Source: a bacterium
GTDB taxonomy: Bacteria; Patescibacteriota; Patescibacteriia; UBA9934; GWF2-40-263
Direction: 5' to 3'
NCBI GenBank assembly: GCA_020057555.1
Contig: JAGVFR010000026.1
Coordinates: 22,631 to 86,630 of the forward strand
DNA length: 64,000 nucleotides
Part shown: positions 3,222 through 59,563 of the stretch, in pieces
Numbering within the stretch: position 1 is the stretch's first letter
Layout of the letters: each line of letters begins with the position of its first letter
Position numbers and translations under genes: made by a program
The notes under the pieces: generated by a model
What the model saw: only the letters and a program-made list of their open reading frames with translations
Database searches by the model: none
What the model was told of the DNA's origin: nothing

Positions 3222-4251
3222 TACAAGAACATATTACGCAATCGGGGCAATTGCCATCGCGATTGCGTTTTTGTTTGCGGCTTTGTTACCTGGGTTTTCA
3301 GGAAAAATTCGTCCTTTACTTACGTCTTCAGATGGCAGTTCTGACAAAGCGCCGGTTGGCCGTCATCCATTAACTGGTTTTCCTATTTATGAGCAAATGG
3401 AACTGCCACAGGTTTTTGGAGTCATGATAGATAATCATGTTGATGCTTGGCCACAAGCTGGAATTGATAGGGCATTTCTTGTGGTTGAGGCTCCTGTGGA
3501 AGCTGGAATTTCACGTTTTCTCGCGTTTTATTCAGATGATCAGGATGTGGATAAGATTGGTCCAGTTCGTTCAGCGCGTCCGTATTTTTTGGATTGGAAC
3601 AATGAACTGGATGGTTTATATGTTCATGTTGGAGGATCAGATTCAGTTCTTGATCAAATCTCCTCTGGCGGCACTTTTGATTTGAATCAGTATTGGTTTG
3701 ACTCCTATTTTTGGCGCGCGTTAAATCGTTATGCACCACATAACGTTTACACTTCTACAAAGTTGTTGAAGCGTTATGTTGGTTTTAAAGAACAAGCGGG
3801 AGTTGCGCTTAAACGATTGTATGATATCTGGAAATTTAAAGATGCTGATCTGTCTGGTGATGCAGAACTAAAAAATATTTCTGTTACGTTTGATGCGCCT
3901 TCTTATGTAACACAATGGATTTTTGATTTAGAAACACATCGGTATTTGCGTTCACAAAGCGGTTCTGTTCATTTGGTTGAAGACAAAACACAAATATCAT
4001 CTGACAACATTGTTGTAATTGTTACAGATGTTGAAATTTTGGATTCGGTTGGACGTCGGAGTATTCGAACAACAGGAGAAGGGAAGGTGTTCTTGTTTCG
4101 CGACGGAAAACAGTTTGAGGGGATTTGGAAAAAGGAATCGGAGAGTAACAGGCTTAAGTTTTACGATTCGAACGGTAATGAATTTGAATTGAATGCTGGA
4201 GTAACGTGGATTGAAGTGATTGCTGATGAATCGGATCTGGAAGTTGATTAA
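3196..4251 (+). CDS. DUF3048-domain (YerB-like) membrane-anchored protein
   Basis: Start chosen at ATG 3196 (in frame with ORF 3169, after rplY stop); N-terminal TM helix then DNHVDAWPQAGIDRAFLVVEAPVEAGISRFLAFY block resembling DUF3048. Confidence 0.55.
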   Translation: MKKLKLKFNTRTYYAIGAIAIAIAFLFAALLPGFSGKIRPLLTSSDGSSDKAPVGRHPLTGFPIYEQMELPQVFGVMIDNHVDAWPQAGIDRAFLVVEAPVEAGISRFLAFYSDDQDVDKIGPVRSARPYFLDWNNELDGLYVHVGGSDSVLDQISSGGTFDLNQYWFDSYFWRALNRYAPHNVYTSTKLLKRYVGFKEQAGVALKRLYDIWKFKDADLSGDAELKNISVTFDAPSYVTQWIFDLETHRYLRSQSGSVHLVEDKTQISSDNIVVIVTDVEILDSVGRRSIRTTGEGKVFLFRDGKQFEGIWKKESESNRLKFYDSNGNEFELNAGVTWIEVIADESDLEVD

Positions 4252-8089: not shown

Positions 8090-9181
8090 ATGACACAAAT
8101 TACAGAATTCAATTATCATCTTCCAAGAGAGTTAATCGCACAATGCTCTGTCCAGCCTCGCGACCAATCACGGCTCATGGTTTTGGATAAACAAACAGGG
8201 AAGTTGAACCACAAGAAATTTTTTGAGATTGTTGATGAGTTGAAAACAGGTGATGTACTTGTATTTAATGATACAAAAGTTTTTAGAGCCCGGCTCAAGA
8301 CGCAAAATGGAATTGAGATATTTTTGTTGCGTGCGCGGGAAGACGATATTTGGGAAGTTTTGGCGCGTCCGGGAAAGAAGTTGCAGGTTGGACAAACACT
8401 TTGTATTGAACATGAAACAGAAAAACTTTGTGGAGAAGTGATGTCAAAACAATCAGACGGAACTGTTTTGATAAAATTTGATCGCGTACCAAATGACGTA
8501 ATCGCGTTTGCAAATATATACGGAGAGATTCCTATTCCTCCTTATGTGAAAAATATACCGGAGCGATTGGAAGATTATCAAACGATCTATGCAAAAGAGA
8601 CAGGTTCTGTTGCGGCGCCAACAGCCGGTTTTCACTTCACAGAAGATCTTATGGAAGAATTAAAATCAAAAGGCGTGCAATTCGAATTTGTAACACTTCA
8701 CGTTGGAATTGGAACTTTTCGTCCAATGAAAACAGAAACGATCGAGGAACATGAAATGCACAGCGAGTTTGTTTCTGTCTCAAAAGAGACAGCAGATCGG
8801 ATCAATCAAGCAAAAAAAGATGAGCGACGCGTGATCGCTGTTGGAACGACAACAGTTCGTACACTTGAAGGAGTCGCAAATTATCCCCTGAGCGAAGGTC
8901 AATTAGGCCTTCGACAGGCTCAGGCAATAATTGACCGAAGTCGAATGGGTAATTTTTATCTTCCAGATGGTTTTACAGGCGACGTTAATCTATTTATCAA
9001 ACCAGGCTTTGATTTCAAAATAATTGATGGGCTTATAACGAATTTTCATTTACCAAAATCAACATTACTGGTTTTGGTTTCGGCTTTTGCTGGAAGAGAA
9101 AATGTTTTGCGCGCGTATGAAGAAGCAGTTGCGCAACAGTATCGTTTTTTTTCCTTTGGCGACGCGATGTTTATTGCTTGA
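8090..9181 (+). CDS. queA: S-adenosylmethionine:tRNA ribosyltransferase-isomerase
   Basis: N-terminal FNYHLPRELIAQ and overall QueA layout; carries an in-frame insertion of the 25-nt dispersed repeat at 8908-8932. Confidence 0.9.
   Translation: MTQITEFNYHLPRELIAQCSVQPRDQSRLMVLDKQTGKLNHKKFFEIVDELKTGDVLVFNDTKVFRARLKTQNGIEIFLLRAREDDIWEVLARPGKKLQVGQTLCIEHETEKLCGEVMSKQSDGTVLIKFDRVPNDVIAFANIYGEIPIPPYVKNIPERLEDYQTIYAKETGSVAAPTAGFHFTEDLMEELKSKGVQFEFVTLHVGIGTFRPMKTETIEEHEMHSEFVSVSKETADRINQAKKDERRVIAVGTTTVRTLEGVANYPLSEGQLGLRQAQAIIDRSRMGNFYLPDGFTGDVNLFIKPGFDFKIIDGLITNFHLPKSTLLVLVSAFAGRENVLRAYEEAVAQQYRFFSFGDAMFIA
8908..8932 (+). repeat. dispersed 25-nt repeat CCTTCGACAGGCTCAGGCAATAATT (copy inside queA coding sequence)
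   Basis: Exact 25-mer also at 57313-57337; near-identical copies at 34817-34841 and 20178-20196; flanked here by the 9-bp inverted repeat GGTCAATTA/TAATTGACC. Confidence 0.8.
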
Positions 9182-34816: not shown

Positions 34817-34841
34817 CCTTCGACAAGCTCAGGCAATAATT
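34817..34841 (+). repeat. dispersed 25-nt repeat copy (CCTTCGACAAGCTCAGGCAATAATT) in the divergent promoter region
   Basis: 1 mismatch to the 8908 copy; flanked by CATTGTAG/CTATAATG inverted repeat. Confidence 0.8.
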
Positions 34842-34854
34842 CTATAATGTCTTC

Positions 34855-36252
34855 ATGCTTTCTCGAATTACTGAAAAAACTTTCTATCAATACATCAAAT
34901 GCCCGAATTGGGTTTACTTTGATGTGCATGCATTTGAAAAACGAGTTCGTGATCCTCTTATGGATCGCTTGATTGATGATGGGCTTCTTGATGAAAAACA
35001 GCGTGAGATCATTTCTGATCGCACTGACATGGTAGAAGTTACATCTGAAGATCCTGATGAAGCGTTTCGACAAACACTTGAGTTTATGCGCGAAGGTCGT
35101 CAAACGATTTTTCACTCTGTACTCATTGATAAAAATTTTGTTGGACATCCTGATGTGCTTGAAAAAGTTGAAGGGCGTTCGAAGCTTGGTGATTTTTATT
35201 ATGTTGCGGTTGATCTTAAACGTTCACGTTTTTTACGCGACGATCATAAATTTCAAGGATGTTTTTATGCTGAACTTCTTGAACGAATTCAAGATGTGAA
35301 GCCTGTTCAAGGTTACATCATCACACCTGACAAAATTGTTTTGCCATATTTGATTAGTGAGTTTGAAGGAGAATTCACTCTTACACTTTCAGAGATTGAA
35401 AAGATTATTGTTGGCACACAGCCAGTTCATTTTGTAACTTCAGGATGTAAACAATCACCATGGTTCAAAGAATGTCGTGGTGAATCCGAAACGTGCGATG
35501 ATTTGTCGTTATTGAATCGAGTTTGGCGTCAAGAAGTTGCTCGTTTGTTAAAAGCAGGAGTCAACACAATATCGGAACTTTCGCTAAAATCTTTGGTTGA
35601 TCTTGAGCGTTTGGCTCCTGATGTTAGTTCATCTCGGCTTGAGATTATGCGCGATCAAGCAATTGCGATAAAGGAGCATCGGCATATTTTTCGTGGAACG
35701 GTTGAACTTCCTGTTGCAAAGATCGAAGTTTTTTTTGATATTGAAAGTGATCCGCTTCGAGATTTTGATTATCTTTTTGGAGTGCTTGTAGTTGAAAATC
35801 GCAGTGAATCGTATCAATCGTTTTTTGCGGTAACTCCAGCGCAAGAAAAAGACGCGTGGGATGAGTTTGTCGCTTTTGTTGAAGGACATTTGGACGCGCC
35901 GATTTATCACTTTGGTCAGTTTGAAGTTGAAGTTGTTAATCGTTTTAGCGCGCGATATGGGATTTCTGCGATTGCGCGAGAAGCGCTTGAACGTAACATG
36001 ATTGATTTGCTTGAAGTGATTCGTCCTGCTGTAATTTTTCCTTTGTCATTTTATTCGCTCAAAGATATTGCCGCTTATTTGGGTTTTGAGTGGCGTGCTT
36101 CTGACGCATCTGGTGCGAATTCTGTTTTGTGGTTTGAAGAATGGTTGAAGAAAAAAAATCAAAAGTTGTTGCAAAAAATTCTTGAGTATAATGAAGATGA
36201 CGTGCGCGCAACTGCTCATGTAAAAAAATGGTTATGTGAAAATGCAATATGA
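34855..36252 (+). CDS. RecB-family (PD-(D/E)XK) nuclease with C-terminal RNase-H-like domain, TM0106-type
   Basis: N-terminal Cys-containing nuclease domain (YQYIKCPNWVYFD); C-terminal EVFFDIESDPL exonuclease-like motif. Confidence 0.6.
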   Translation: MLSRITEKTFYQYIKCPNWVYFDVHAFEKRVRDPLMDRLIDDGLLDEKQREIISDRTDMVEVTSEDPDEAFRQTLEFMREGRQTIFHSVLIDKNFVGHPDVLEKVEGRSKLGDFYYVAVDLKRSRFLRDDHKFQGCFYAELLERIQDVKPVQGYIITPDKIVLPYLISEFEGEFTLTLSEIEKIIVGTQPVHFVTSGCKQSPWFKECRGESETCDDLSLLNRVWRQEVARLLKAGVNTISELSLKSLVDLERLAPDVSSSRLEIMRDQAIAIKEHRHIFRGTVELPVAKIEVFFDIESDPLRDFDYLFGVLVVENRSESYQSFFAVTPAQEKDAWDEFVAFVEGHLDAPIYHFGQFEVEVVNRFSARYGISAIAREALERNMIDLLEVIRPAVIFPLSFYSLKDIAAYLGFEWRASDASGANSVLWFEEWLKKKNQKLLQKILEYNEDDVRATAHVKKWLCENAI

Positions 36253-37139
36253 AAACAAGTTGGTTTCGAAATTGTGCGGAGTTAATTATCTTGATCGCTA
36301 TCATTGCCACGGTTTACACACAACGCGTGGGGATTTCGCAGTGGTTTCGAGAAATGATGGAGCCGTCTGTGCCAGAGGCAGTGGAGTTTGAAAAAATAAC
36401 AGAGGAAAAGGAAGAAGGTAGTCGCGGGCTTCAGCCCGCGCAAGCGCCAGTCATCCCGAGTGCCGTCGATGGATCTGAAGAAAAAATATTGCCTGAACCT
36501 GTTGAAGGCAGTATAGATGATGTAGTTGTCACTTCGACAAGCTCAGTGGATAAAATTTTGCCTGTTGAAATCAATCTCGCTGTTCCTTTTACATCTCAAG
36601 CTCCGCACGCGAATTGGGATTTACCATATAAAGAAACATGCGAAGAAGCATCGCTCTATATGGTTGATGTTTATTATAAAGGAGTAAAAGCGGGGAAGAT
36701 TGCGGCTGATACTGCGGACGAGGAGATTAAAAAAATTATAGAATTTGAAAAAGAAATTTTTGGATATTATGAAGACACAACCGCAGAACAAGTTGGAATT
36801 CTTGCGGAAATGATGTATGGTCACGAAAAAATTGAACTGATCGAAAATCCAACTGTTGAACAAATTAAAAAACATGTTGCTGAAGGACATCCGGTTATTG
36901 TTCCTGCGGCAGGACGAGAACTTGGTAATCCGAATTTCACAGCGCCTGGTCCGATATATCACATGTTAGTGATTCGCGGATACACAAAAGATGGTAAATT
37001 CATCACAAATGATCCGGGCACAAAAAACGGCGAAGCATATGTTTACGATTTTGACACAGTTATGAACGCGATGCATGATTGGAACAATGGTGACGAGATC
37101 ACGGAAGGAAAAAAGGTAGTACTAATTGTTTATCCATAA
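36249..37139 (+). CDS. peptidase C39-like domain protein (YvpB-like), membrane-anchored
   Basis: N-terminal TM; FTSQAPHANWDLPYKETCEEAS Cys-containing block resembling C39-like domains. Confidence 0.45.
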   Translation: MKTSWFRNCAELIILIAIIATVYTQRVGISQWFREMMEPSVPEAVEFEKITEEKEEGSRGLQPAQAPVIPSAVDGSEEKILPEPVEGSIDDVVVTSTSSVDKILPVEINLAVPFTSQAPHANWDLPYKETCEEASLYMVDVYYKGVKAGKIAADTADEEIKKIIEFEKEIFGYYEDTTAEQVGILAEMMYGHEKIELIENPTVEQIKKHVAEGHPVIVPAAGRELGNPNFTAPGPIYHMLVIRGYTKDGKFITNDPGTKNGEAYVYDFDTVMNAMHDWNNGDEITEGKKVVLIVYP

Positions 37140-54371: not shown

Positions 54372-55148
54372 ATGGACGAATTAATGAACGAACTCAAGCA
54401 TTTAGGTTTATCTGACAAAGAGGCGTCTGTTTATCTTGCATCGCTTGAACTTGGCCCAGCTTCTGTGCAAGACATATCGCACAAAGCAAAAATAAATCGC
54501 GCGACAACATACGTGATGATAGAGGTATTGTCAGGACGTGGACTTCTTTCAACTTTTGTAAAAGGGAAGAAACGTTTTTACGCGCCAGAAAGTCCTGATC
54601 GATTGATTTCCATTTTACGCGTGCAACAGAAAGAACTTGAAGAAAAAGAAAAAGAGTTTGCAAAGTCGCTTCCATTGTTGCTCGCGCTTTATAATGCTGA
54701 AGGAGCAAAGCCGCAGATTCGATATTTGGAAGGGCCAGAAGGATTGCGATCTTTGCGTCAGACTTTTGAAAAATTGAATGGGGAATTTGTTCAGATTCTT
54801 TCGATTGACGATGCGTTGGCAACAAGAGAACTAATGGAAGAAAGTCCGAAACATGTTTCCGCTCTTCGACAAGCAAGCACTTCTTATAGAATTTTGGCAG
54901 TTTTAGATAAGAAGGAACCAAAAGATATTCCGGAGATGGGAACAGGCGAAATTAGAATGGTTCCGTTTTTGGAGTTTCCAATGCACGGTGAGATTACCGT
55001 GCGAGGAAATCATGTGTTTTTGTTTTCATATCGTTCAGCAGTTTTGGCTGTTGTGATTGTAAGTAAAGAGGTCGCTGATGCGGCTCGGGCATTGTTTGAG
55101 CTTGCTTGGAAAGGAGCAAAAGATTTTCAATCAAGAATGGATAAATAA
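54372..55148 (+). CDS. TrmB-family transcriptional regulator
   Basis: N-terminal LGLSDKEASVYLASLELGPASVQDISHKAKINRATTYVMIEVL wHTH typical of TrmB-like regulators. Confidence 0.7.
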   Translation: MDELMNELKHLGLSDKEASVYLASLELGPASVQDISHKAKINRATTYVMIEVLSGRGLLSTFVKGKKRFYAPESPDRLISILRVQQKELEEKEKEFAKSLPLLLALYNAEGAKPQIRYLEGPEGLRSLRQTFEKLNGEFVQILSIDDALATRELMEESPKHVSALRQASTSYRILAVLDKKEPKDIPEMGTGEIRMVPFLEFPMHGEITVRGNHVFLFSYRSAVLAVVIVSKEVADAARALFELAWKGAKDFQSRMDK

Positions 55149-55677
55149 CAAAATAGGACCGAGTGTGGTCCGTTGTTGAGAGAGATAAGATATGAGAGAA
55201 GCGCAACAATGTGCGCGAGAGCTTTTTTATGTGAAGCTAGAAAAGGAGCTACGATCCGAGAGCACAATGCATGTGCGGTTGGAGAAACGCCGGATTGAAC
55301 CGACGCGGGTTGAGTTCGTTTGCGTACGTTTTGAGAACCATTCCTGCTTCCATTTTATTACCTCGGACTTTGCCGGCTTGGCCTGCCGGCCAGGCATCTC
55401 ATCCAAAACTTTTAGGATGAGAATATACTCTAGCAATTTTTGTTGATTTTGTCAAGCCAATTGGACTGACTAAGAAGAATTTGGAGAATTTGTTGATATT
55501 TATTAACATATTTTGTCCTGTGACCATTGACAAGCAAAAGATTATTTGATAGTTTGGTCGGTTCACTCAAGAAGTGGGCAATGAGGAAGAGAGGACATAA
55601 AACCGACCAACTCCCAATGGCCGGTTTTATCTTAGTCGAAACATGGTACATGGGTTCATGTGTGTGATAAACAAAAA

Positions 55678-55708
55678 GACGTCCTGTAAACAGGGCGTCT
55701 TTTTTTTG
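55678..55708 (+). terminator. intrinsic terminator with no upstream CDS (possible sRNA 3' end)
   Basis: GACCGTCCTG-TAAA-CAGGGCGTC hairpin followed by T8; TTGACA at 55527 and the hairpin 55554-55610 lie upstream. Confidence 0.55.
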
Positions 55709-55718
55709 GGAAAGAGCT

Positions 55719-55838
55719 ATAGCCATCACATTATAAAATGGGACTTTAGACGACTTACCTGTGGATGGGATGCGAAGGACAAGCAGACCGCCACAGGAAA
55801 GGATGGATAAATCCTATTTCATAATGTGATGGCTATAC
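55719..55838. repeat. 120-nt element bounded by perfect 17-bp terminal inverted repeats
   Basis: TATAGCCATCACATTAT ... ATAATGTGATGGCTATA; internal CCTGTGG...CCACAGG and GGAT..ATCC sub-hairpins. Confidence 0.6.
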
Positions 55839-56186
55839 AGTCTTGCGACCGCGCGGTCGTTGGACATTACATTATGATTCCGTACTTATAAAGATGAAAA
55901 ACAAGCAGGTTGCCATTTTTAATTTTTTATGGAGTATGGAACCATAATGTAATGTCCACATTCCTCTCACAGGTCTTCATTGCAAGCATGGAGCAATGGA
56001 AAACTGTGATTGGAGGGCGACGTTGGAAAGATATCCTTCGTCGCCCAAGAGTTTGCCTTCTCGGCTGGAGGCTCTGCTTCCTCTTGGCTCACCGTTTTAG
56101 GAAGGTGACTCCTTTTTGTCGCGTGTTTCAGATTGTAGTGGAATGTGTTAACTCACTTTGCCCTCCTAAATGTTTGGTTTTTTTGG

Positions 56187-57197
56187 CTACGAGAGCATGG
56201 CCTGGAGCTTGAGCTCGGCCATACGGATCACGCCAGGAACCGTCCAGTTCTTGATCGCACGGACGTCCGCGGCGGTCAGACCAGAGTTGCGAATTTTGAT
56301 AGCCGCGCGACCGAGTTGACGGTACTCGTCCTTGCTCACGCCCGGGACGATCTTGCCCTGAACGCGGCGTGGCGGACGAACCAGACCTAGACCGCATGCG
56401 AGCAAACTTCCGTCGCGCAGGGTTTCGACGTGCGAGCGAGTTTCGGCGATTCTTGCGTCAACGCGTTCTTCGGCCTCGCGCTGAAGCCGTGCTTCCTCGG
56501 TCGCTCTCTCGTCCGCGAACATATTCTCGATTGCCGCCATTGCCTCGGGCACGGTCTGCGATCCGAGCGGCAGAACGGTCTGTGCGCACTTGGGGCAGAA
56601 CGACTTCTGAAGGAGACCATGAACGGTCACCTCCTCGAGCCTCTTGACCCCGATAGCGCGCATGATTGTGCTGAACACGACCGCGACCCTTGCCTCGTTC
56701 ATCGGAACGAGTCGCAGACACTGTCCGAACTTTCCCTGACAGACCACGTGGTCCACGCCGTCCTTCGCAATGACGAGTCCCGGGGTGAACCTGACCTCGG
56801 GCTCGAGAACGGGCTCGGGCGCTGGAGCGGGTGCGGCGGGAGCCTTCTTGGTCTCGGCCTTGTGGACCTTGACCTTCGCCGGCTTCGGTGTCTCGACCTT
56901 CGGAGCCGGGGACGGGTTGGCCTCGGTCTTGGGCGAGACGATCTCCTTGGCCATGATTTCGACAGCCTCGATCGAGGAGCAATCCCTCCAGTTCTGGCCC
57001 GTGACCTCGATGATGTGCATGGCGCGACCGAGCTCGACGTGGGATGCGAGGAAGTTGATCGAGCCCTCGAAGTGACGCTCAACCACACGGCCGAGCTCTT
57101 CGAGTTCGCCAGGGAGACCGGGGCGGGAGTCGTCCTGCGGGATGATCTGAAGTCCGGGAGCCATCTGCGCGACCATGCGTAACCTCCAAAAAAGCAT
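56187..57197 (-). CDS. hypothetical protein on high-GC island (orphan, Pro/Ala/Lys-rich linker)
   Basis: Minus-frame codon positions sampled at 56761-56820: GC1 75%, GC2 40%, GC3 85%; GC switches to host-like at the stop codon; other overlapping ORFs are GC artefacts. Confidence 0.6.
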   Translation of the reverse strand: MLFWRLRMVAQMAPGLQIIPQDDSRPGLPGELEELGRVVERHFEGSINFLASHVELGRAMHIIEVTGQNWRDCSSIEAVEIMAKEIVSPKTEANPSPAPKVETPKPAKVKVHKAETKKAPAAPAPAPEPVLEPEVRFTPGLVIAKDGVDHVVCQGKFGQCLRLVPMNEARVAVVFSTIMRAIGVKRLEEVTVHGLLQKSFCPKCAQTVLPLGSQTVPEAMAAIENMFADERATEEARLQREAEERVDARIAETRSHVETLRDGSLLACGLGLVRPPRRVQGKIVPGVSKDEYRQLGRAAIKIRNSGLTAADVRAIKNWTVPGVIRMAELKLQAMLS

Positions 57198-57312
57198 GTG
57201 TCCTGGGTCCCGAACCTACACCACGTAGGAACGGATCAATTTATAGAACCTATCGGTCCTACGACCTTAGCAGTTTGGAAATTGTTATACCTTGAGCGAA
57301 GGAAAATTACTG

Positions 57313-57337
57313 CCTTCGACAGGCTCAGGCAATAATT
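57313..57337 (+). repeat. dispersed 25-nt repeat copy between the two high-GC genes
   Basis: Exact match to 8908-8932; flanked by AAATTACTG/CAATAATTT. Confidence 0.8.
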
Positions 57338-57463
57338 TGCCGGAGTCGGAGGGTTAGATTCAATTTCTAAACTATTAAGATCGTTCCGGGTGGCGTGTTC
57401 AGGGAAAGAAATCCCTTTACACACCACCCGGAAGATATAGAGCGGAGAGAGCGGAAAGAACTA

Positions 57464-58003
57464 CTAGCCGTTGGCGACCTTGCGGGCCTTGCCCTTGACG
57501 GTCACGATCGGCGTCTCGACGGCGGCGGGAGCCTCGGCGGGCGTGGAGACCGGAGCCGGTGTCACGGCGACCGCGGCCTTGAGCTCGGCCACAACCTGCG
57601 GGCCGACCTGCTCACCGATCGGGGTCGAGGCGAGAGCAGGCTTGGCGGGTGCGGAAGCGGCGGGCTTGGGCGTGAGCTTCGGCGCGGGCTTCTCGGACTT
57701 GGACTTCGGGAAGTAGGACATCGTGTTGACCATGTCCTTGAAGTCCAGGAGCGGTGCGAGGGCCGAGTTCTGCCCCATGCCGTGCTCGATGTTGTCGATG
57801 GCCTTCGTGAGAAGGGCCTTTCCGACGTCTTCGATGCAGCGCATGGTGTAGTACTCGGTGCCGACGTAGTCGTCGCGCTTCTCCGGGTCGAGGCCGAGCA
57901 CCTCGCACGCCTTCGCGAAGATCTTGTCGCGCAACTCCCTTTCGAAGATGCGTCCGTAGAGCGGGGAGGGATCGGTCGAGGGGGCCTGGAAGCTGGTCTT
58001 CAT
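57464..58003 (-). CDS. hypothetical protein on high-GC island (orphan, Pro/Ala/Lys-rich tail)
   Basis: GC3 20/20 in a sampled 60-nt stretch; N-terminal globular part then KPAPKLTPKPAASAPAKPALAST linker and a Lys-rich C-terminus. Confidence 0.6.
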   Translation of the reverse strand: MKTSFQAPSTDPSPLYGRIFERELRDKIFAKACEVLGLDPEKRDDYVGTEYYTMRCIEDVGKALLTKAIDNIEHGMGQNSALAPLLDFKDMVNTMSYFPKSKSEKPAPKLTPKPAASAPAKPALASTPIGEQVGPQVVAELKAAVAVTPAPVSTPAEAPAAVETPIVTVKGKARKVANG

Positions 58004-58573
58004 TGAAATTCTCCTTTTCGATGGCCTGCCTCCAGCCGAACCTGACCCCTGTGGTCAAATCCGCTTTCAGCTCGATGACGGCAAATGTTGTCACCATTGA
58101 GCTGAATCGGATTTTCCCAGAAATACGGAGGTAAAGTGTGACCCATTGACCTGCCCGAAGGCTGGTGTAGATCGTGAGTCTCTTGCGTATGAATTCAGTC
58201 AGCCTAGGCCGAATGAACACATTTGAGACTCTCTGCCAATGTCGTCTTGTAAGACTCGATTGGACAGCTTTACTCTCTCCTCCGTGTTTCTGGGTCGGTT
58301 TTTAACAAAAAACCGGTTGTCGTATATATCTGATCTTTTTGGCAAGAGTCAGACGTACACAACAACCGGTTCTTTTATTCAAAGAATGGCTATTGACTAC
58401 CTTTATACCGTGGGTAGTGCACGGACTCTCTCCCAAAAGTCCTATTTGTAAGAATCATCTTAACGGTCATACTATATCATATTCTGTCAAAACTGTCAAG
58501 ACCCGTATGTCGGTGAGGTTAGAATTTTAGCTAAAATTAGACAAAAGCTACTGTCAGGATTTTTTAGACTTAT

Positions 58574-58620
58574 CACTCCGTCACTTCTTCACTCCGTCAC
58601 TTCTTCACTCCGTCACTTTG
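58574..58620 (+). repeat. tandem 16-mer CACTCCGTCACTTCTT x3 directly upstream of holB
   Basis: Seen directly; related CACTCCATTACTCCATCACT at 54340-54366 upstream of the TrmB-like gene. Confidence 0.7.
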
Positions 58621-58639
58621 TGTTACACTAAAATCTGTT

Positions 58640-59563
58640 ATGGAACCTTTTTCTAAGACGATCGGCCACAAAACGGCACGACAAGTGTTTTTGCGCATGA
58701 TAGAAAACAACCAGCTTCCGCATGCGATTCTTTTTGTTGGTCCAAAACATGTTGGGAAAACTCATCTTGTCACAGAATTGATCCAGCATCTTTTTCATAC
58801 AATACGTCATCCATCGCTCATTTCCGATGTTAGTCTTTTAGCAAGAGAAGTTGATCCAAAAACAGGCAAGAAAAAATTCGCTATTTCTGTTAAACAAGTT
58901 CGTGCTCTTGTTGAACGTCTTTCAATGACTCCAATGGAAGGAAATTGGAAAATCGCGTTCATTCAAGAAGCTGATCGGCTTTCGATCGGAGCCGCGAATG
59001 CGCTTCTCAAAACACTTGAAGAACCAAAAGGAAACGCTCTTATAATTTTACGCGCGCCAAGTGTTGAATCTGTTTTGCAAACAATCGCGTCTCGTTGTCA
59101 GATTTTTCGACTGTCGCCTGTTGCCAAATCAGAAATTATTCCAGCGCTTCAAAAACGTGGGCTTTCAAAAACAGAAGCAGATGAAATTTCAGAGCGATCT
59201 TTTGGTTGTCCGGGAATTGCGATTCGATATATTCAAGATAGTGAAATGCGCGCGCGCAAAGAAACAGCGATCGCGCAAGTCGAAACTTTAATGAACGCGT
59301 CGCTTCCAGAGCAATTTAGATTAGTTTTTGATCTCATTCCAAAAACAGAAATTGACAAGTCTATTGCACTTTCTCATTTGCTCGATGATTGGTCAGAAGT
59401 GTTGCGCGCGAATTTATTAAAAACAGTCGCTGAAAAGCAAACAGCAACCGTGAATAAAACCGCTCGCGTTCTAAATTGTATTCAAACTGTTCGTAGCGCG
59501 ATTTCTCACAACATAAATCCTCATTTATCTTTAGAACATATTTTTTTATCAACACATGTATGA
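58640..59563 (+). CDS. holB: DNA polymerase III delta' subunit
   Basis: AAA+ Walker A GPKHVGKT and delta-prime layout. Confidence 0.8.
   Translation: MEPFSKTIGHKTARQVFLRMIENNQLPHAILFVGPKHVGKTHLVTELIQHLFHTIRHPSLISDVSLLAREVDPKTGKKKFAISVKQVRALVERLSMTPMEGNWKIAFIQEADRLSIGAANALLKTLEEPKGNALIILRAPSVESVLQTIASRCQIFRLSPVAKSEIIPALQKRGLSKTEADEISERSFGCPGIAIRYIQDSEMRARKETAIAQVETLMNASLPEQFRLVFDLIPKTEIDKSIALSHLLDDWSEVLRANLLKTVAEKQTATVNKTARVLNCIQTVRSAISHNINPHLSLEHIFLSTHV

Follow-up and report, generated by a model that had tools for sequence, protein, structure and literature searches.

A structured spacer between two GC-rich orphan genes of a CPR bacterium, probably native to its operon and carrying a 72-nt mobile repeat in a hairpin loop

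The window, i.e. the whole 64,000-nt stretch of Patescibacteria DNA that was analysed, has a GC content of about 41% and includes a GC-rich block (approximately 56100-58200) made up of two ORFs on the minus strand, gene B and, downstream of it, gene A (Table 1). The start codon of gene A is the ATG at 57176, the listed ORF start at 57197 being a mechanical extension, and the true spacer between the two genes covers 57177-57463 (287 nt, 46.3% GC). Total GC content is 62.8% for gene A and 66.3% for gene B. An earlier note on this DNA had described a spacer of about 42% GC between genes of about 65%; the spacer does lie below both of its neighbours, but its GC content over 57198-57463 was measured at 46.6%. 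At codon positions 1, 2 and 3 the GC fractions are 0.68, 0.44 and 0.77 in gene A and 0.61, 0.47 and 0.91 in gene B, versus third-position values (GC3) of 0.25-0.33 in host genes.

Table 1. Positions of the genes, signals, predicted RNA structures and repeat copies in the window
Feature	Coordinates	Strand	Remarks
Promoter, TTGACA-17-TATAGT with TG	58471-58499	-	Near-consensus, 11/12 matches
Long hairpin with U-run (terminator or attenuator), end of leader block 1	58307-58371	-	Also in L048 and L115, with altered sequence
Leader block 2, 179-nt predicted multi-helix RNA	58116-58294	-	Closing stem of about 19 bp
Gene B, 179-aa orphan	57464-58003	-	ORF with AAGGAG ribosome-binding site; stop codon TAG at 57464-57466
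Hairpin H1	57384-57433	-	Arms 57384-57405 and 57412-57433, 22 nt each, 86% complementary
Stem H2, 5′ strand	57363-57384	-	ACGAUCUUAAUAGUUUAGAAAU
72-nt short palindromic (MITE/REP-like) repeat	57285-57356	+	In the H2 apical loop, antisense to the operon
Stem H2, 3′ strand	57261-57282	-	AUUUCCAAACUGCUAAGGUCGU
Hairpin H3, gene A leader	57210-57234	-	CCG..CCUAC GUGGU GUAGG..CGG; invariant in five close alleles
Gene A ribosome-binding site, GGAGG	57183-57187	-	In all alleles, including those with an empty site
Gene A, 329-aa orphan	56187-57176	-	ATG at 57176-57174, GGAGG ribosome-binding site 6 nt 5′
Second full copy of the 72-nt repeat	8881-8952	+	In frame within queA (8090-9181)

Gene A and gene B are real, fast-evolving orphan genes. 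Neither has a significant family match in Pfam or PHROGs, and only about 5-6 close relatives of gene A and gene B were found among 5.8e9 proteins, one of them annotated as Candidatus Uhrbacteria. The dN/dS ratio is 0.36-0.94 for gene B and 0.21-0.32 for gene A, the latter range indicating that gene A is under purifying selection. The possibility that the GC-rich 'genes' are in fact a giant non-coding RNA was ruled out by their codon periodicity, with GC3 far above GC2, and by the dN/dS of about 0.25 of gene A. The gene B protein consists of an N-terminal helical domain followed by a predicted, low-confidence Pro/Ala-rich tail; in its AF2 model four helices reach a pLDDT of about 88, and the tail stays below 50. 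The gene A protein is laid out as an N-terminal helical domain, a Pro/Ala/Lys linker, four invariant cysteines (C146, C153, C194 and C197), a coiled coil and a C-terminal helical domain. The four cysteines suggest a zinc ribbon; the AlphaFold model of this protein was poor (pLDDT 49). In distant relatives of gene A the protein terminates in a basic tail with a YLAKKAAKA…GGGGKKK-like motif, a hint at possible nucleic-acid binding.

The spacer was compared with its counterparts in loci from other genomes (numbered with L), where five distinct alleles were found among the window and its close relatives, with lengths of 293 nt in the window, 307 nt in L005, 337 nt in L001 and 217 nt in both L002 and L006. 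Common to all five are a short tract rich in C and U behind the gene B stop codon, hairpin H1, a second stem (H2) that directly abuts H1 with no gap, hairpin H3 and the ribosome-binding site of gene A. As RNA, H1 forms a 15-bp stem with a 5-bp tip; it begins 30 nt past the gene B stop codon, and its far end is 208 nt upstream of the gene A start codon. That is, the 15-bp hairpin that the earlier note had placed immediately upstream of the second gene, in minus sense, does exist, but it lies just past the 3′ end of gene B. H1 is conserved in L001, L002 and L005. It is also kept in L116 and L117, where compensatory changes have occurred, and the prediction for L120 contains a similar hairpin. 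H2 is a 22-bp helix, with 91% of the cells paired across six sequences and four pairs altered on both sides. When H1 and H2 were taken together in one alignment of six sequences, four of which come from close relatives (A7), 93% of the cells were paired and seven pairs had changed on both sides, whereas slid-partner controls gave 34-46% pairing and at most one pair changed on both sides. Furthermore, H1 and H2 were predicted independently in the distant loci L116 and L117. The G-U pairs in both helices fit a transcript of the sense strand, since the opposite strand would give A-C mismatches. Folding energies relative to shuffled sequences corresponded to z-scores of -6.5 for the window with its insert and -6.8 for an empty allele without it. 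At the position equivalent to H3, a CCCC/GGGG-type hairpin was seen in L115, L116 and L117, as judged by eye. H2 is not clearly kept in L119 and L120, and the spacer module is therefore not universal.

The core of the spacer is 77-90% identical. Judging by the 25-45% difference at synonymous sites of host genes, unconstrained sites would be about 55-75% identical, less than the spacer core. Judged from these comparisons, the spacer is the operon's own conserved, structured intercistronic RNA, ordinary in kind. Conservation and covariation of the spacer are shown, as is the variable presence of the insertion described below, and they form the basis for the broader reading that 57177-57463 is, in all probability, the native intercistronic region of a two-gene minus-strand operon with a 72-nt mobile repeat in the H2 loop, and not a later patch.

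Under this reading, gene B and then gene A would most probably be transcribed from the promoter at 58499-58471, with a structured leader of about 470 nt ahead of them. This site, which is probably the promoter of both genes, is the only strong minus-strand promoter upstream of them; it is identical in L001 and L005, and similar sites are found in L048, L115, L117, L120 and L122. The spacer transcript would then fold serially into H1 after the stop codon of gene B, H2 and H3, followed by GGAGG, and gene A would be translated from this conserved ribosome-binding site of its own. Our best guess is that H1 and H2 act as mRNA processing or stability elements, e.g. as a site for a double-strand-specific nuclease and a 3′-end protector for the gene B segment, which would uncouple the amounts of B and A. 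Intercistronic stem-loops set differential mRNA stability in other operons, such as the REP sequences of malE-malF and the hairpins of the puf operon. As in those cases, stable hairpins directly follow the upstream cistron here and the next cistron has its own ribosome-binding site; in contrast, H1 and H2 are not generic repeats but conserved, lineage-specific sequences, and their function is putative.

Alternatively, H1 could be a terminator or attenuator that ends the gene B transcript, with gene A being expressed from an unrecognised promoter of its own within the spacer. A GC-rich hairpin of 15+5 bp at this distance from the stop codon would be suited to such a role, and CPR promoters are poorly known. 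However, H1 has no U-tract (its tail is ACGAUCUUAAUAG) and was not called by the terminator scan, whereas neighbouring terminators have clear U-runs (58307-58371); a promoter scan of the spacer gave no sigma-70-like site, and H2 follows H1 without any gap. H1 could still be a U-less terminator, but we consider this scheme unlikely, and the properties of H1 argue for an mRNA structural element more than for a terminator.

The repeat occupying the H2 loop contains a 25-mer, CCTTCGACAGGCTCAGGCAATAATT, at 57313-57337 on the plus strand, and an identical copy of the 25-mer lies at 8908-8932 within queA. The identity of the spacer repeat with the queA copy had been recognised in the earlier note, and the shared element turns out to be 72 nt long, with 83% identity between the two copies over this length. 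In the close relatives the content of the loop differs. The loop is empty, with CAAAAA only, in L002/L003/L007 and in L006; it holds a member of the same repeat family in the opposite (sense) orientation in L005, and an unrelated element (GTCATTCTGAGC...) in L001/L008. Such empty and differently filled loops in orthologous spacers indicate that the 72-nt repeat arrived secondarily and that this loop has taken up insertions more than once, and the intact H2 helix beneath the insert indicates that the insertion is tolerated. The opposite orientation of the two copies could in principle reflect an inversion instead of independent insertions. Comparison of filled and empty sites revealed no unambiguous target-site duplication, the loop being A/T-rich, and clear terminal inverted repeats could not be defined for the window copy, the ends of which are degenerate (TTATACCT...GGAGGGTTA). 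The native operon would thus have received this copy, antisense to its transcript, in the apical loop of H2 with the helix below remaining intact, and the repeat is probably neutral cargo there.

Another way to look at the same hairpins is that they act as DNA, either as attC-like recombination or cassette-boundary sites or as landing pads for hairpin-seeking elements. The three different contents of the H2 loop would fit this idea, as would the presence of the same leader in front of an unrelated first ORF in L048 and L115. Nevertheless, there is no integrase (IntI) nearby and no tRNA gene in the window, the attC core sites GTTRRRY/RYYYAAC are by eye absent from H2 (GTTTAGA and GTTTGGA fail at position 4), the G-U pairs favour an RNA helix, and gene content is stable within the close clade. 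A role at the DNA level is thus very improbable compared with the RNA structure of a native operon.

The 72-nt repeat belongs to a family that is common in this bacterium and beyond. Four core matches occur in the 64-kb window versus none expected in shuffles, corresponding to two full and two partial copies. The partial, degenerate copies lie at 36484-36508 on the minus strand, in the linker region of a 296-aa ORF (36249-37139), and at 34817-34841, in a short intergenic gap. The second full copy is inserted in an ORF that was identified as QueA by its match to T. maritima QueA (1vky; E 9e-102). There the reading frame is kept over 24 codons, yielding some 20-24 extra residues (…GQLGLRQAQAIIDRSRMGNF…) that are absent from T. 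maritima QueA. The 23-nt core CCTTCRACARGYTCAGRCAATAA, whose reverse complement (CCTGAGCNTGTCGAAGG) is a second common module, was found in more than 106 stretches of a species-representative genome collection. Nearly all of these records are labelled Patescibacteria/CPR (Uhrbacteria, Parcubacteria, Saccharibacteria, Kazan, Portnoybacteria and Sungiibacteriota), a few bins bearing other labels. The closest public MAG (GCA_016188475.1) has at least 29 core matches among the loci listed. The spread of the core across CPR genomes makes the label 'host-type', given to the repeat in the earlier note, a fair one. The 72-nt composite form is also present in other loci, with a consensus that starts with TTATTCCC and ends with GGGaTAA. 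In L014, from the closest public Uhrbacteria MAG, a perfect 43-nt tandem array (3770-3921) holds four copies of the core. A limited literature collection contained nothing relevant on CPR MITE/REP elements or on the repeat sequence.

The repeat resembles MITEs and REP/BIME elements (e.g. Correia elements, ERIC and REP) in that it is short, non-coding and strongly self-complementary, has many copies per genome and shows presence/absence polymorphism at orthologous sites; like them, it lands in intergenic RNA structures with which it would be co-transcribed. It seems to differ in that no target-site duplication is evident and the terminal inverted repeat of its consensus (TTATYCCC...GGGRTAA) is weak, at 7-8 nt, and it does differ in that its 23-nt core is near-invariant across several CPR phyla and occurs in modular combinations and in 43-nt tandem arrays. 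Moreover, REP/BIME elements are extragenic, whereas copies of this repeat are also found inside ORFs (in queA and in the 296-aa ORF). Rickettsia palindromic elements, by comparison, reportedly occur in coding genes, and the copy that sits in frame inside the housekeeping gene queA is similar in this respect; the host phylum is a different one, though, and the copy between gene B and gene A is intergenic. The family documented here is thus one of short repeats common to CPR phyla that insert both in RNA hairpin loops and in frame in housekeeping genes.

The two genes have a fixed place in the genome. Contigs with close relatives (L001/L008, L002/L003/L007, L005 and L006) show the same neighbourhood as far as they reach, in the order BNR-repeat protein, holB, gene B, gene A, trmB, glycosyltransferase, mreB and DUF4012. 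The arrangement of gene B, spacer and gene A between holB and trmB is found in L001, L005 and L006-L008, as far as each contig extends, and L002 covers the 3′ end of gene B, the spacer, gene A and trmB. When 1.84e9 representatives were searched with a profile, 13 further, distant clusters of gene A came to light. Five of the seven distant loci examined adjoin holB or trmB (L115, L116, L117, L120 and, for its first ORF only, L048); L119 and L122 are short contigs on which only the arrangement of a first ORF, a spacer and an A-family gene is visible. This order is thus found at the holB...trmB position in more distant lineages too, and the placement is identical wherever flanks can be seen (L001, L002, L005, L008, L115-L117 and L120). 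Relative to the window, amino-acid identity is 82-100% for flanking host proteins (mostly at least 90%), 62-79% for gene A and 59-72% for gene B, with dN values of 0.001-0.05, 0.13-0.25 and 0.15-0.39 and dS values of 0.3-0.7, 0.5-1.0 and 0.3-0.5, respectively. The dS of the gene pair (0.3-1.0) is comparable to that of the flanking host genes, which suggests that the pair has co-diverged with the genomes.

The high GC3 is shared as well. It amounts to 0.83-0.97 in all seven distant loci and in the close relatives, where host GC3 ranges from 0.31 to 0.66, and to 0.77-0.97 overall for the operon ORFs of the window, L048, L115-L117, L119, L120 and L122; the exception is an eighth distant locus (L121, P0019), which has a GC3 of 0.52 and no flanks for comparison. 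High GC3 in nearly every lineage examined makes the foreign nature of gene A and gene B supposed in the earlier note, and their recent acquisition, doubtful. It points to a long-standing property of the operon and not to a mark of recent import; selection, codon adaptation or biased gene conversion may lie behind it. No tblastn match to gene A was obtained in phage and plasmid collections, a viral contig collection contained neither a gene A relative nor an exact leader or spacer motif, and no donor of the two genes emerged from these collections or from the profile search. All homologues with examinable flanks sit in the same CPR locus. The earlier note had taken donors with the same low-GC spacer as evidence against itself; no donor is known, and every relative has the same lower-GC spacer, which in spirit amounts to that finding. 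With a horizontally acquired island the unit shares the sharp compositional contrast to its flanks (63-66% versus 41% GC) and the orphan status of its genes. It differs from one in being present and syntenic in all relatives and in that its high GC is limited to synonymous sites and kept across differing host GC; in addition, no integrase-like ORF lies between holB and trmB and no flanking direct repeats were found. A link to a diversity-generating retroelement (DGR), through a bAvd-like gene of L001 and L005, was ruled out by the absence of this gene from the window and of any reverse transcriptase.

It had also been proposed that the host repeat and a low-GC leader were inserted after acquisition of foreign genes and gave the downstream gene a promoter or ribosome-binding site. 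The GC content of the spacer, lower than that of the ORFs, and the host-type nature of the repeat are what one would expect in such a case. Of this proposal the later arrival of the repeat stands, given the empty sites, but H1, H2, H3 and the ribosome-binding site are conserved, and the spacer core with its GGAGG is present in all alleles, including the repeat-free ones. Since GGAGG occurs without the repeat and the spacer has no promoter-like hexamers, the repeat supplies neither signal. Furthermore, the GC contrast originates from synonymous sites (GC3 0.77-0.91, GC2 about 0.45), and the spacer, being non-coding, cannot share this bias. Addition of the whole spacer after a transfer is therefore very improbable. 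Less credible still is an island assembled from two separately acquired genes with the spacer as their junction, which the two orphans with their somewhat different GC3 (0.91 and 0.77) might suggest, but against which stand the same gene order and spacer modules in the close relatives checked, the same order of first ORF, spacer and A-family gene in distant lineages, and a synonymous divergence of both genes within the range of the host flanks, indicating co-divergence. A note of caution follows for similar cases: a compositional dip together with a host repeat between GC-rich genes mimics 'domestication' after transfer, whereas the comparative data show an old, conserved and structured spacer in which a mobile repeat has settled in a hairpin loop that tolerates it.

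More unusual than the spacer is the locus around it. Conservation extends to the 5′ leader of gene B (58004-58470), where three-way identity between the window, L001 and L005 is 88-100% over most conserved blocks and 98-100% over several, in contrast to the host synonymous-site differences given above. The blocks are broken only at two insertion hot spots (58085-58115 and approximately 58296-58306). At the matching sites of L001, L005, L006, L048 and L115, members of the family of the 72-nt repeat are found in L005, L048 and L115, and unrelated short elements in the other genomes. Of the 61 pairs predicted for leader block 2, 17 show compensatory double changes across eight lineages. A covariance model of this block (R1) detected one copy per sampled genome and, in about 0.79 Mb of CPR DNA, none beyond these. 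Rfam gave no match at the gathering score in the whole window, and in 55050-58800 only chance-level matches at E≤1. From this conservation and covariation, the leader is a candidate for a new cis-regulatory RNA. Going further, and only tentatively, the holB-trmB locus of this Uhrbacteria-related CPR clade could be an undescribed RNA-controlled expression module composed of the promoter, the leader of about 470 nt and two fast-evolving, GC3-rich orphans, a proposal that we regard as possible rather than probable. If true, it would represent a new class of cis-regulatory RNA, and selection or biased gene conversion, not foreign origin, would keep the genes GC-rich. In either case, non-coding conservation, covariation-supported RNA structure and a persistently extreme GC3 coincide at this locus, and the locus thus lends itself to testing what keeps GC-rich genes in place in reduced, AT-rich genomes.

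The same promoter and leader precede an unrelated GC-rich first ORF of 314 aa (P0025/P0026), which replaces gene B, in L048 (7288-8000) and L115 (3656-4600). The second ORF of L115 is a 493-aa relative of gene A. The first ORF of L048 has no Pfam match, and the possibility that the first ORF of the two loci is a diverged gene B was not supported by hhalign.

Several other non-coding features were observed around the operon. Downstream of gene A there are two palindromic elements (55861-55958 and 55718-55837) with arms of 26-29 nt that are 90-92% complementary. The element at 55861-55958 is absent from L001 and L005 and is therefore probably another lineage-specific mobile insertion; a related sequence is found in L065. 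A conserved block just downstream of gene A (55960-56100, minus strand; …GAGCCAAGAGGAAGCAGAGCC…CGTCGCCCTCCAATCACAG…) shows 58-70% three-way identity. The minus strand also has a conserved non-coding unit at 55156-55455, beside trmB, which could be a small RNA gene; its three-way identity is 70-86%, it has no counterpart in Rfam, and it includes its own promoter-like site at 55455-55427 (TTGACA-17-TAGAGT) and a terminator-like hairpin at 55171-55156. Finally, three tandem 16-nt units (TCACTCCGTCACTTCT) lie at 58573-58620 between the start of holB and the leader promoter, and L001 and L115 have different short tandem units at the equivalent place.
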